A stretch of DNA of 64,000 nucleotides from Candidatus Nomurabacteria bacterium GW2011_GWD2_36_14 (GCA_000991405.1 LBRL01000001.1:456466-520465), one strand, 5' to 3'. Numbered from the stretch's first letter, positions 16,547 to 19,301 are shown. Notes: generated by a model from the sequence alone, not told the origin. Translations and numbers: made by a program.

Positions 16547-17047
16547 ATGAAAAAAACTATTATTGTAACTTTGGTTATTGTGCTTGGCTTGATTGGCCTT
16601 ATCTGGTTTGGTAGTAAGTCGCAAACTTCTACTTCTCCTACCGTGCCTCAGACTGGAGCAAAAACTGCTTTATTTGCAGATGAAACTATGTATGATTTCG
16701 GTACTATTTCTATGAAAAAAGGAGATGCTACTAAAGATTTTATTATCACTAACCCGACAAATAATGATATGGAAATTTCCTCCATAAGTACTTCTTGTAT
16801 GTGTACCAATGCATTGATTGTTCGAGCAGATGGTACTACAAAAGGTCCTTTTGGAATGGCAGGTCATGGATACCTTCCGCCTGCAAATGAAATAATTAAA
16901 GCCGGAGAAAATATTATTATTAGAGCTATTTATAATCCAAATGCTCATGGTCCTGCTGGAGTAGGATTCATTGATAGATTCATTACTCTTGTTGATAAAA
17001 CAGGAAATAGTTTGTCTTTGGAAGTAAAAGCAACAGTAACACCTTAA
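16547..17047 (+). CDS. secreted/lipid-anchored hypothetical protein with CMC motif (possible DUF1573-like beta-sandwich; candidate metal-binding)
   Basis: Signal/anchor MKKTIIVTLVIVLGLIGLIW; motifs STSCMCTNA and HGYLPP; in copper locus. Confidence 0.35.
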   Translation: MKKTIIVTLVIVLGLIGLIWFGSKSQTSTSPTVPQTGAKTALFADETMYDFGTISMKKGDATKDFIITNPTNNDMEISSISTSCMCTNALIVRADGTTKGPFGMAGHGYLPPANEIIKAGENIIIRAIYNPNAHGPAGVGFIDRFITLVDKTGNSLSLEVKATVTP

Positions 17048-17051
17048 ATCT

Positions 17052-17831
17052 ATGAAAAAAACAATAACAATTCTAATTGTCATCATTGTTGCCATATTGG
17101 GAATAATTTTCTTGAAGAATAGCCCCGAAACATCTTCATTTATTTGGAGTTTGAGCAATAGTGGCGCTTGGCTTCTGCCTCTTGTCCTTATCTCTGCCCT
17201 TCTTGACAGTGTCCACCCTTGCTCATTCTCAATTCTACTTATCACAATTGCTTTCCTATTTGGGATGCAATTAACAAGAAAGAAAATTCTTCAAGTTGGT
17301 GGTACATACATAGCAGGAATATTCATCGCTTACTTTTTGATAGGTCTCGGTATACTGAAAGTTTTACACTTATTTAACACCCCTCATTTTATGGGTAAAC
17401 TTGGGGCAAGCTTACTTATAATCTTCGGTGTAATAAATATTATAAATGAGTTATTTCCTAAGTTTCCTCTTAAATTGAAAATCCCCTCTTTCTCTCACAC
17501 AACGATGGGGAGATTAATGGAGAAGGCATCTTTCCCTGCAGCTTTCGGACTCGGACTCCTCGTCGGTATATGCCAATTCCCTTGTATGGGTGGACCATAC
17601 CTGATGGTCATAGGTCTCTTGAAAGATCAGGTTACATATCTGACAGGTTCTGGTTATCTCATGCTTTATAATTTCATCCTTATCATTCCTCTTGTCGCTG
17701 TTCTATGGATAACCGCAAATAAAAATATTGTGGATAAAGTGCAGGAATGGAAAAAGACAAATATGAAAGGTGTAAAATTCTGGGCTGGTCTTGCAATGAT
17801 TATTATTGGTATCTTAATTTTCTTTATTTAA
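17052..17831 (+). CDS. DsbD/CcdA-like thiol-disulfide membrane protein (putative)
   Basis: Polytopic; Cys in TM1 (VHPCSFSILLI) and TM4 (CQFPCMGGP) as in CcdA/DsbD_2 family. Confidence 0.4.
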   Translation: MKKTITILIVIIVAILGIIFLKNSPETSSFIWSLSNSGAWLLPLVLISALLDSVHPCSFSILLITIAFLFGMQLTRKKILQVGGTYIAGIFIAYFLIGLGILKVLHLFNTPHFMGKLGASLLIIFGVINIINELFPKFPLKLKIPSFSHTTMGRLMEKASFPAAFGLGLLVGICQFPCMGGPYLMVIGLLKDQVTYLTGSGYLMLYNFILIIPLVAVLWITANKNIVDKVQEWKKTNMKGVKFWAGLAMIIIGILIFFI

Positions 17832-17835
17832 ATTT

Positions 17836-18330
17836 ATGAAAACAACAAAACCAACAATAGATGAATTTCTAGTAAAAATAGAATCCCTTAAAGAAAAAGC
17901 AGGTGTTGATCTTTCTACAGCAGAGGATCTGAGCTTAGCTGTAATGAACCTAATCAGCTTAGAAGAACATTTCTTCTTTACAGGAGTAAAAATTAAAAAA
18001 GACGAATATTTTGATACAGCAGAAGAAATCAGAGAGCTCAGAAAAGAATTATTAAAAGAATTAATGCCAAATCACGAAGGAGAAACATGGTGTATATCAA
18101 AACACCTACTCTCTTCTACAATGAGGCTAATAGAAGTCGGCAATAAGCTTTCATCTGATGATAAGAAAGATGAAGCAAAGAAAATGTTTGAAAGAGCTTA
18201 TAAGGTATATTCAATCTTTTGGGCTCTTAAATTAAAATTAATAGATGGTCAATTAATAAAAGATACAGTAAAAACAAGTTCCAACCTTGAGGACTTGGTA
18301 GGCAAACTAGCCGATTGCTGTAATGAATAA
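17836..18330 (+). CDS. hypothetical cytoplasmic protein
   Basis: 164-aa ORF tightly packed (4-nt gap) with neighbours. Confidence 0.3.
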   Translation: MKTTKPTIDEFLVKIESLKEKAGVDLSTAEDLSLAVMNLISLEEHFFFTGVKIKKDEYFDTAEEIRELRKELLKELMPNHEGETWCISKHLLSSTMRLIEVGNKLSSDDKKDEAKKMFERAYKVYSIFWALKLKLIDGQLIKDTVKTSSNLEDLVGKLADCCNE

Positions 18331-18332
18331 AT

Positions 18333-19301
18333 ATGGAAAACAAAATTAATAAATATCAAGTTATCCAATCAAGTATCCTAATAGTTGCCATTATTGTTTC
18401 CAGTTTTCTAGGATATGTAGTTGGAGTAAAACAAGGTACACAACAATTGGTAAAAGGGGTAAATCAAAAAAATTCTCTAGTGTCAAAATTAGAAGAGAAA
18501 GTTCTACCTTCTAAAGGGGTAGTGTTACCTATAGTATGGGGAGATCTTGGAGTAAAATTAGTAGAGGGAGGAGTTATAGATGCTGATAAATTTAAAGCTA
18601 TTTATATAAATAGAGGTCAATATACAGAAGAGAATAAAAAATTACTTGAAGAAATAAATAATGGCAGAATAAAGATAACGGCTGAAAATTCAGGATATTT
18701 ACTCAATCTATTCTGGGCACTAGGTCTAGCTAATAAGAATGAAATATTAGAAAAAGGTGAAATGGTTGATCCAAAATACGGTGGAGCTGGAAACTTCGCC
18801 TCTACTGGTGGTTGGACTTTAGCAAAGGGTGAGGCAATGGATCATTATAGTAAACATGCTTTCTTTACTCTTACACTAGAACAGCAAGTTCTAGTGGATA
18901 AAGTGTCTCGTGGTATTTACCGACCATGTTGTGGTAACTCAGTGAACTTTCCTGACTGCAATCACGGAATGGCAATGCTTGGACTTCTAGAATTGATGGT
19001 TTCACAAGGTGTAAGTGAACAAGAAATGTGGGAGACTGCTTTGACTGTAAATTCATATTGGTTCCCTGATACTTATCTTACAATCGCAACTTATATGAAA
19101 GATAAAGGTATAGATTGGAAAGATATCAATACAGAAGAAATACTTGGAAAAGATTTTTCAAGTTCACAAGGATTTGCAAATATTTCTGCACAAGTTATAC
19201 AGCCTGAGAGTTCACAGCAACAAAAGGGAGGTGGTGGGTGTAGTGTAGGAGGTGGAGCCCCAGTACCACAGCAACAAAAACAAGTAGGATGTGGAGTATA
19301 A
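18333..19301 (+). CDS. membrane-anchored hypothetical protein with CC/C/H cluster (RPCCGNSVNFPDCNHGMAM) and Gly/Gln-rich tail
   Basis: N-terminal TM; Cys/His/Met cluster suggestive of metal binding; no family recognised. Confidence 0.35.
   Translation: MENKINKYQVIQSSILIVAIIVSSFLGYVVGVKQGTQQLVKGVNQKNSLVSKLEEKVLPSKGVVLPIVWGDLGVKLVEGGVIDADKFKAIYINRGQYTEENKKLLEEINNGRIKITAENSGYLLNLFWALGLANKNEILEKGEMVDPKYGGAGNFASTGGWTLAKGEAMDHYSKHAFFTLTLEQQVLVDKVSRGIYRPCCGNSVNFPDCNHGMAMLGLLELMVSQGVSEQEMWETALTVNSYWFPDTYLTIATYMKDKGIDWKDINTEEILGKDFSSSQGFANISAQVIQPESSQQQKGGGGCSVGGGAPVPQQQKQVGCGV

Follow-up and report, generated by a model that had tools for sequence, protein, structure and literature searches.

In the Mer system (MerP/MerT/MerA), a metal is handed across the membrane by vicinal Cys pairs located in membrane helices and in flexible C-terminal arms, and such pairs typically bind soft metals, examples being MerT, MerA and ArsD. 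CupA of Streptococcus pneumoniae has a Cys...Cys-x-Met-x-Met Cu(I) site, and TlpA reduces ScoI and CoxB in CuA assembly. The Scs proteins form a copper-induced envelope thiol system, and the affinity of one of them, ScsC, for Cu(I) is sub-picomolar (PMC10907172, PMC8900818). The thiol reductase CcmH is anchored in the membrane and folds into three helices, the first two of which are joined by a loop that holds its Cys pair; its substrate is the CxxCH motif of apocytochromes, and CcmG and DsbD/CcdA serve it in turn (PMC3884852). Here we compare with these systems a copper locus of Candidatus Nomurabacteria bacterium GW2011_GWD2_36_14, found in a stretch of 64,000 nucleotides (GCA_000991405.1, LBRL01000001.1:456466-520465), which in its full length is called the window below. 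Four adjacent open reading frames (ORFs) of this locus, designated A, B, C and D, lie on the same strand, 2-4 bases apart, between two promoters with CsoR operators:

16547..17047, + strand: A, 166 aa, assigned as a DUF1573 variant
17052..17831, + strand: B, 259 aa, assigned as a divergent membrane protein of the DsbD/CcdA superfamily
17836..18330, + strand: C, 164 aa, cytoplasmic, all-helical, undescribed family
18333..19301, + strand: D, 322 aa, predicted membrane-anchored and extracytoplasmic, undescribed family

We read A to D, together with orf146, the small membrane protein gene that precedes A, as a copper-induced envelope thiol module centred on D, and give this reading a probability of about 0.5. 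Functional statements throughout rest on sequence, predicted fold and gene context. The A-D set is embedded in loci with CsoR and a P1B-type ATPase across many lineages of the Candidate Phyla Radiation (CPR), a group that represents a large share of bacterial diversity and has very small genomes, and the module is still kept in thousands of them. The 120 best matches of C, with names from Nomura-, Woese-, Wolfe- and Zambryskibacteria, are 77-100% identical to it; this conservation, together with retention in small genomes, argues for an important function.

An initial annotation of the window had described the four ORFs by their Cys/His motifs, had found no clear family for them, and had proposed a periplasmic module for copper handling or thiol redox chemistry, not described for CPR-like genomes. 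The ORFs and the quoted motifs (SCMCT and HGYLPP in A, HPCSF and FPCMGGP in B) are all present on the + strand. The lack of a clear family holds for C and D; it does not hold for A, which matches PF07610, and holds only in part for B, which profile-profile comparison places with DsbD/CcdA. A module for either copper handling or thiol redox chemistry is supported by the sequence data, and full-text literature searches found no description of it. The outward location agrees with our predictions, but not the term used for it: CPR organisms are generally regarded as single-membrane, and "extracytoplasmic" fits better than "periplasmic". Two features lay outside that annotation, a near-invariant Cys at position -3 of the D tail and the membership of orf146 in the module.

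D carries RPCCGNSVNFPDCNHGMAM and a Gly/Gln-rich tail. From its sequence it is assigned to an undescribed family of membrane-anchored extracytoplasmic proteins, in agreement with the anchor and tail noticed initially. The N-side is the more positive in 141 of 169 sequences, against 5 with the opposite distribution, and these positive-inside counts place the globular domain outside. A word-indexed search with D retrieved more than 7,760 proteins, counted as representatives of clusters at 90% identity, all unnamed and none with a Pfam domain; clustering at 50% gives 600 representatives. D has no match in Pfam, NCBIfam or PDB sequences and no full-length fold match. When 96 members were searched against Pfam with E values up to 10, no recurrent family appeared, and the family profile run against PDB sequences was also blank. 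A lone PDB sequence match, 9r84 ("All4940 protein", E 1), was dropped, the literature on it being uninformative. In these 96 sequences, which extend down to 32% identity, the motif R-P-C-C-x-N…F-x-D-C-N-H-G is invariant; the invariant positions are A156, R197, C199, C200, N202, F206, D208, C209, N210, H211, G212, S277, G280 and the tail Cys.

The D tail ends in a conserved arm. A Cys is found at exactly -3 in 218 of 228 complete C-termini, with the consensus [G/S]-C-[G/S/A]-[V/I/L/A]-COOH, and about half of the family members have two tail Cys. In the window protein the arm is duplicated (residues 299-322), GGGGC303SV being followed by ...QVGC320GV. D thus pairs a CcmH-like thiol site, described below, with an invariant C-terminal Cys arm, and no description of such an arrangement was found. 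The Cys3-His site itself may instead have a Zn-structural role.

Some D forms have additional domains. Distant forms (37-50% identity) can carry an N-terminal domain with several transmembrane segments (TM) and a CP/TVCG motif inside a helix, and single members among the 96 are fused to DsbC_N, rhodanese or BNR domains. The rhodanese fused to D in protein P0261 has an active-site-like CKTGRMS loop, and in locus L101 a rhodanese gene (5779-6210) lies directly 3' of D, near genes for a multicopper oxidase and a Zip transporter. The occurrence of rhodanese both as a fusion and as a neighbour hints at a sulfur-transfer link.

The AlphaFold2 model of D is confident, with a predicted local distance difference test score of 87.4 and a predicted template modelling score of 0.81. 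In it, a helix that forms the transmembrane segment and stalk (residues 7-57) leads into a globular domain of mostly helical structure (60-290), which is followed by the disordered Gly/Gln-rich tail. Foldseek returned CcmH as the top structural match, albeit a weak one (probability 0.89, TM-score 0.67 normalised to target). The order of elements in the model is helix 182-194, a loop with C199/C200, helix 210-224, which starts at C209-N-H, and helix 229-243. We compared D by hhalign with a CcmH/NrfF profile of 11 sequences, taken from E. coli and plasmid records: residues 180-234 align with CcmH 8-63 at E 2.8e-4 and a probability of 41%, which is sub-significant alone, and against the single E. 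coli CcmH the E value is 0.11. The alignment places RPCC on RCPxC, residues D208, N210 and A214 on "D-S-N..A", and "QGxSExEM" on "xGxSdxEI". The second Cys of CcmH falls on C200 and the first on R197, LRCxxC being replaced by R-P-C-C. On this model, one sub-domain of D is probably remotely related to CcmH. D is not counted as a CcmH, because even at E 10 the Pfam family (PF03918) misses D and all 96 members, the two motifs are not the same, and D has beyond CcmH the tail, about 120 residues, a His and one more Cys.

The same data bear on the proposal that D is a true CcmH orthologue acting in cytochrome c maturation, its link to copper being incidental. CcmH is the top structural match, and a CcdA and thioredoxin-fold pair, an arrangement known from cytochrome c maturation, lies upstream of D in some loci. 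The proposal is nevertheless effectively refuted by the absence of a Pfam CcmH match among the 96 members and of any PDB sequence match, by RPCC in place of LRCxxC, and by the surroundings of the gene: no heme-handling genes occur in the Pfam-annotated D loci, the 64 kb window has only one ORF containing CxxCH, and copper genes accompany D in nearly all loci (counts below). Furthermore, Patescibacteria almost never encode respiratory oxidases and lack electron transport chains (PMC7507113).

We mapped six genome and 80 metagenome D loci by tblastn with proteins from the window and from variant loci. Among the 55 loci with at least 2 kb of upstream sequence, the genes upstream of D are the following:

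37/55 loci: A and B, 11 of them also with C
8/55 loci: a Pfam-positive DsbD_TM CcdA and an AhpC/TSA-fold protein, 5 of them also with C
3/55 loci: DUF411/CopG and two membrane proteins with CxxC in a helix
2/55 loci: A alone
1/55 loci: B and C
4/55 loci: none of these sets

Copper genes were counted in those 52 loci whose flanks span 6 kb or more. A P1B ATPase, of the CPC or CPH type, is present in 42, csoR in 26, HMA-DsbD_2 in 20 and a cupredoxin in 19, and at least one of these or DUF411 is found in 49 of the 52, which bears out the co-occurrence with metal genes that the initial annotation had named as a check. Going by tblastn coordinates, the D and ATPase genes touch or overlap slightly in L005, and a gap of about 20-45 bases separates them in L053, L076 and L021. 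A CsoR box is located directly 5' of the orf146-A-B-C-D block in L001 and L004, and three contexts reached independently via C homologs all show A-B-C-D with csoR and an ATPase. In a distant locus (L098) the order is csoR-ATPase-[TM+D]-cupredoxin. D, which adjoins these P1B ATPases, offers a testable candidate for a Cu(I) receiver on the cell surface of bacteria that lack an outer membrane.

In the loci where A and B are replaced, the AhpC/TSA-fold partner (L003 7083-7715, with homologs in L008, L018, L019, L023, L034, L038 and L062) has the CYP[AS]C and downstream PGHT motifs invariant in 8 sequences, the latter extended as PGHT(Y)(V/I)xxD; Sco copper chaperones show such a CxxxC…H pattern. 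It matches the Pfam AhpC/TSA model at 1.2e-14, and SCO1-SenC only at E 0.032 (14.6 bits, with a cut-off of 22.8); it may represent an unrecognised Sco-like lineage. The alternative CcdA (L003 6053-6958 and homologs) has vicinal APCC in TM1 and CCAP in TM4, whereas the usual CcdA has one Cys per half. As this CcdA and thioredoxin-fold pair takes the place of A and B upstream of D, A and B hold the slot of a known reductant-relay pair. The swap with known redox families favours electrons as the cargo of B. It also offers a first functional clue to DUF1573, a large family that has no assigned function.

A is assigned from its sequence as an N-terminally anchored extracytoplasmic variant of DUF1573, an Ig-like beta-sandwich. 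It matches PF07610 at 38.0 bits (cut-off 26.1) and E 1.7e-9, over model positions 4-47 of 98 only. Following the N-terminal anchor, the domain is predicted by the positive-inside count to face outward. SCMCT corresponds to residues 83-87 and HGYLPP to residues 107-112. C84, C86, M104 and H134 are kept in 37/37 homologs, the cysteines as C84-M85-C86 and the His within AHGPAGVG. HGYLPP, which the initial annotation had taken as a motif of A, is present, but only 62% of homologs retain its His (H107), and invariance is seen instead at M104 and H134. The PF07610 model lacks an insertion found in A, with invariant GP..M and AHGPAGVG. The DUF1573 selenoproteins of the OS_HP2 subfamily carry U-G-C (PMC9312934), which suggests that the CxC of A is a reactive site; A carries C-x-C where these members have U-G-C, a column equivalence that is inferred and not aligned. 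Copper may also be bound by A.

B is a polytopic membrane protein with no Pfam match at E values up to 0.1, including DsbD_TM (PF02683) and DsbD_2 (PF13386), and its NCBIfam matches are all sub-threshold (ArsG 1.4e-5, DsbD 0.012). Its profile nonetheless aligns over 189 columns with CcdA proteins of related loci (hhalign probability 97.3%, E 2.6e-11), which themselves match DsbD_TM at 2.5e-11. HPC57 and FPC178 of B align to the CcdA cysteines, with one Pro-Cys per half (TM1 and TM4), and from these comparisons we assign B to the DsbD/CcdA superfamily as a divergent member. C57 (in HPC), C174-x3-C178 (in FPC) and H112 (in PHFM) are kept in 44/44 sequences, C174 and H112 being invariants beyond the CcdA pattern. 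The cargo of B could be electrons or Cu(I).

C is a cytoplasmic all-helical protein of an undescribed family. It has no hydrophobic N-terminus, signal sequence or transmembrane segment, consistent with the cytoplasmic protein of 164 aa first proposed; nothing was found for it in Pfam, NCBIfam or PDB sequences, and it has no specific fold match. A homology search retrieved 4,454 proteins (cluster representatives at 90% identity), and a Candidatus Nomurabacteria metagenome-assembled genome encodes a protein with 100% identity to C. H45, C86, H90, C161 and C162 are kept in 23/23 sequences, E-G-E-T-W-C86 is invariant, and so is the terminus C161-C162-x-E-COOH, which lies behind a linker of variable length. 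Conservation of the Cys/His positions, another check named at the outset, is thus seen in the homologs of all four proteins; it greatly exceeds what chance would give, and the Cys, His and Met residues are under strong constraint.

These features can be combined into a working mechanism. The orf146-A-B-C-D genes would be transcribed from the CsoR-controlled copA promoter. D would be the constant core, with an outward Cys3-His site (C199, C200, C209, H211) in a CcmH-like three-helix sub-domain. Cu(I) exported by the P-type ATPase would be captured or passed on by D through thiolate ligand exchange, and the Cys of its flexible, Gly-rich C-terminal arm would shuttle between partners and the core site. 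B and the outward DUF1573 protein A would keep the thiols of D serviced with reducing equivalents from the cytoplasmic side, in parallel with the role of CcdA and a thioredoxin-fold protein towards CcmH or Sco. C might be a cytoplasmic accessory partner whose C-terminal Cys-Cys arm docks on B.

Several observations weigh against this module. The vicinal Cys pairs (C199-C200 of D, C161-C162 of C, PCC/CCAP of the alternative CcdA) are unusual for disulfide relays and favour a metal relay. The HMA domain on the DsbD_2 neighbour and the cupredoxin fusion in L103 suggest that DsbD-fold proteins may conduct metal. A conserved terminator-like hairpin precedes A (see below), and co-transcription of A-D with copA may therefore be partial. 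C is found in only 17 of the 55 loci and is hence accessory. The 80 metagenome loci are those most similar to the D of the window, which biases the co-occurrence towards close relatives; among four distant D contexts, copper genes are found in two (L098/L099 and L101) and not in L100 and L102.

The first two points lead to a tentative alternative, which we regard as possible though it falls well short of probable: a Mer-like thiol relay in which Cu(I) or another thiophilic metal crosses the membrane without ATP, from C to the Cys triad of B and on to A and D. The HMA-DsbD_2-cupredoxin set would then be a second triad of the same design. Such a relay would account for the vicinal Cys pairs of C, D and the alternative CcdA, for the third invariant Cys of B (C174-x3-C178) and its invariant His112 in PHFM, and for the invariant Met and His of A beside its CxC. 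It would also suit the DsbD_2 paralogue with its cytoplasmic HMA domain, which in L103 is one polypeptide with an extracytoplasmic C...CxMxM cupredoxin, and the long D forms fused to a multi-TM domain with CP/TVCG in a helix; the linker-plus-Cys arms of C and D could reach the cavity of a DsbD fold. However, the families that replace A and B in 8 of the 55 loci are known as redox proteins, about two thirds of the loci are without C, and no homology to MerT, MerP or MerC was found, the NCBIfam MerTP model matching the HMA domain only. Export would have no apparent driving force, the ATP-driven CopA being already there, and import is illogical under CsoR derepression.

In L103 (8786-10543), one of the three contexts reached via C homologs, a single protein of 585 aa fuses the HMA, DsbD_2 and Cupredoxin_1 domains that are encoded separately in the window. 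Its sequence predicts one working unit, with metal binding on the cytoplasmic side, a DsbD fold in the membrane and the cupredoxin outside. This is also where a more general proposal can be placed, which we consider unlikely: that the DsbD/CcdA-fold proteins of these loci are ATP-independent Cu(I) conduits and not electron carriers, served on both faces by Cys-tipped arms. The arms would be Cys-Cys-x-Glu-COOH of C inside and Gly-Cys-Gly-Val/Ile-COOH of D outside, and the triads C-B-A/D and HMA-DsbD_2-cupredoxin, the latter being fused in some genomes. If true, this would amount to a Mer-like thiol-relay route for copper and to a new transport role for the DsbD fold.

The cupredoxins suggest a further possibility, that D is a TlpA/Sco-like thiol reductase or a metallochaperone that loads a co-encoded cupredoxin, with A and B supplying the reductant. 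In L098 and L099 the D gene overlaps by 4 bases a cupredoxin gene whose motif, CSIYCGAGHSSM, is of the CuA type, and a C...CxMxM cupredoxin lies after D, behind HMA-DsbD_2, in 19 of the 52 loci. The L098 cupredoxin (9491-9913), with the same CSIYCGAGHSSM, also matches the Pfam COX2 model, in a phylum without respiratory oxidases. CcmH, the closest fold, reduces a client CxxCH motif (PMC3884852), and the alternative partner of D has the Sco-like CxxxC...H pattern. We hold such cuproprotein maturation to be rather unlikely, as the cupredoxin is present in only 19 of the 52 loci against 42 for the P1B ATPase, and a gene under CsoR control would be induced when copper is in excess, as expected for detoxification and not for biogenesis. 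Respiratory oxidases were reported in 3/492 Patescibacteria single-cell genomes (PMC7507113), which makes a need for CuA-type assembly doubtful.

Finally, D might be the terminal reductase of a general Scs- or DsbC-like system that repairs or isomerises envelope disulfides under copper stress, without itself binding copper. It is established that copper induces some thiol oxidoreductase systems (PMC10907172), and the CcmH-like fold of D, the family member fused to DsbC_N and the DsbA-, VKOR-, DsbB- or thioredoxin-like genes that D adjoins in L004, L005 and L006 would all fit. We judge this improbable nonetheless: the invariant His, the third Cys and the arm Cys exceed the needs of a two-Cys reductase, D is tightly coupled to ATPase and cupredoxin genes, and its partners include proteins of copper-binding type (DUF411/CopG, Sco-like pattern).

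The copper region extends from 12.8 to 21.3 kb of the window and comprises eleven + strand ORFs with short or no gaps. Besides A to D, its features are as follows:

12828..12856, + strand: promoter-like site 1, TTGACA-17-TATACT, with the CsoR-type palindrome TATACCCCCTAGGGGTATA (12834-12852) in the spacer
12864..13123, + strand: csoR, Cu(I)-sensing repressor (PF02583, 8.6e-25)
13152..13712, + strand: DUF305 / CopM-like protein (PF03713, 2.5e-16; NCBIfam CopM 1.5e-11, below cut-off)
13718..15979, + strand: copA, P1B-type ATPase with HMA domain and CPC motif (from the sequence and from Pfam annotation of the identical gene in L105)
16008..16448, + strand: orf146, small membrane protein of 146 aa with a conserved TM-H...C...C...H pattern
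16447..16511, + strand: hairpin and U-tract between orf146 and A, -18.5 kcal/mol, z -4.17, terminator- or attenuator-like
19354..19737, + strand: DUF302 protein (PF03625, 8.3e-16)
19769..19797, + strand: promoter-like site 2, TTGACT-17-TATAAT, with the CsoR-type palindrome at 19775-19793
19866..20897, + strand: HMA-DsbD_2 membrane protein (PF13386, 4.6e-33; PF00403, 3e-7)
20900..21301, + strand: membrane-anchored cupredoxin, Cupredoxin_1 (PF13473, 3.6e-8)

The flanking genes are those listed by the initial annotation (csoR, DUF305, copA, DUF302, HMA+DsbD_2 and Cupredoxin_1), and the second CsoR box that it reported is real, being the palindrome at 19775-19793 in a promoter spacer. The CsoR-type palindrome TATACCCCNTAGGGGTATA has just two copies in the 64 kb window, at 12834-12852 and at 19775-19793, where 0.04 matches would be expected by chance. 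Each copy sits in the spacer of an 11/12 promoter match, and these two are the best + strand matches of the region. The palindromes at both promoters place A-D in a first CsoR-type transcription unit and the HMA-DsbD_2/cupredoxin pair in a second. The HMA-DsbD_2 protein has an invariant cytoplasmic GMHCxxC and the transmembrane residues C137 and C258. In the cupredoxin of the window, which is predicted to face outward, C84...C121-x-M123-x-M125 is invariant in 18/18 sequences, a pattern like that of the Cu(I) chaperone CupA of S. pneumoniae.

The regulator belongs to the CsoR family: besides the PF02583 match, its translation shows the C...H-x3-C pattern of Cu(I) ligands (DVYC...ESHLGTC), and both promoters carry palindromic GC-rich operators. 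A persulfide-sensing regulator of the CstR type was rejected, the Cys-His-Cys ligand set being present and copA adjacent. The true start of csoR is probably the ATG at 12864 (MNNKQKL...) and not the TTG at 12758, because an ORF starting at the latter would enclose its own promoter (12828-12856). The counterpart of csoR is called with 86 aa in L105 and with 121 aa in L106.

The product of orf146 has no Pfam or NCBIfam match. It is homologous to the "small138" family (hhalign 78.6%, E 1.7e-5), which is found before A in about 15 loci; orf146 is thus part of the same module as A-D, and is the first module gene in related loci. The hairpin behind it has no Rfam match. It is kept in L001, L004 and L007 with compensatory changes in the stem (ATTTATCAA/TTGATAAAT versus ATTTACCAA/TTGGTAAAT), and may act as an attenuator, adjusting how strongly A-D are expressed relative to copA/orf146.

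The metagenomic scaffold L105 (800,830 bp) shows the same gene order as the window, which indicates that the locus is chromosomal. A genomic island at the tmRNA gene (10073-10465) was considered and rejected, as no direct repeat of the tmRNA 3' end was found downstream. Just 3' of this gene, and 5' of an AbiV-like HEPN gene (10925-11539), a 55-nt sequence occurs twice (10582-10636 and 10841-10895, 84% identical, 259 nt apart). An ORF of 180 aa on the - strand (11734-12276) separates the AbiV-like gene from the copper operon; it has the Cys-rich stretch CDCGGDHGRIYCKEC and no Pfam match, and is also present in L105 and L106.

Compared with the described systems, D resembles CcmH (PDB 2hl7, PF03918) in its predicted membrane anchor and extracytoplasmic location. 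It may also share the three-helix bundle of CcmH, where the reactive Cys lie between the first two helices; the profile alignment covers the same helices. CcmH is also served by a thioredoxin-fold protein and a DsbD/CcdA reductant carrier. What sets D apart is RPCC...DCNH, its additional invariant Cys and His, a globular N-terminal part longer by about 120 residues, the Cys-tipped tail, and a context of copper instead of cytochromes.

Scs (ScsABCD of Salmonella, Proteus and Caulobacter) is likewise a copper-induced envelope module with a DsbD-like carrier and extracytoplasmic Cys proteins. ScsB, ScsC and ScsD are thioredoxin- or DsbD-domain proteins of Proteobacteria, whereas here we find a DUF1573 beta-sandwich (A) and a D protein predicted to have a new fold; the regulator of Scs is CueR or CpxR, and here CsoR. 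Homology is limited to the DsbD superfamily membership of B. With a DUF1573 protein as A and no match of D to the thioredoxin fold, the module counts as analogous to Scs but does not belong to it. The CcdA/TlpA/Sco systems also place a CcdA-type protein beside a thioredoxin-fold protein and a membrane-anchored Cys-His copper handler, and this arrangement is approached by the alternative D loci with their CxxxC...H thioredoxin-fold protein and by the D genes that are translationally coupled to a CuA-type cupredoxin. Here, however, D is not of thioredoxin fold, the partner reaches only E 0.032 against SCO1-SenC, and the genes belong to a CsoR regulon in hosts without respiratory oxidases.

Unlike Mer, the module shows no homology to Mer proteins and has no reductase; copper is the likely metal, and the direction would necessarily be outward. 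The cop operon of S. pneumoniae (CopY-CupA-CopA) shares the copper-sensing repressor, the P1B ATPase and the membrane-anchored cupredoxin; it has no equivalents of A-D, and the cupredoxin described here faces outward by prediction and is paired or, in L103, fused with HMA-DsbD_2. By function the closest systems are Scs and CcdA/TlpA/Sco, and by fold CcmH, but the module is a member of none of them. It represents a kind already known, the copper-responsive envelope thiol module, here combining a DUF1573 variant and a divergent CcdA with two undescribed families, C and D.

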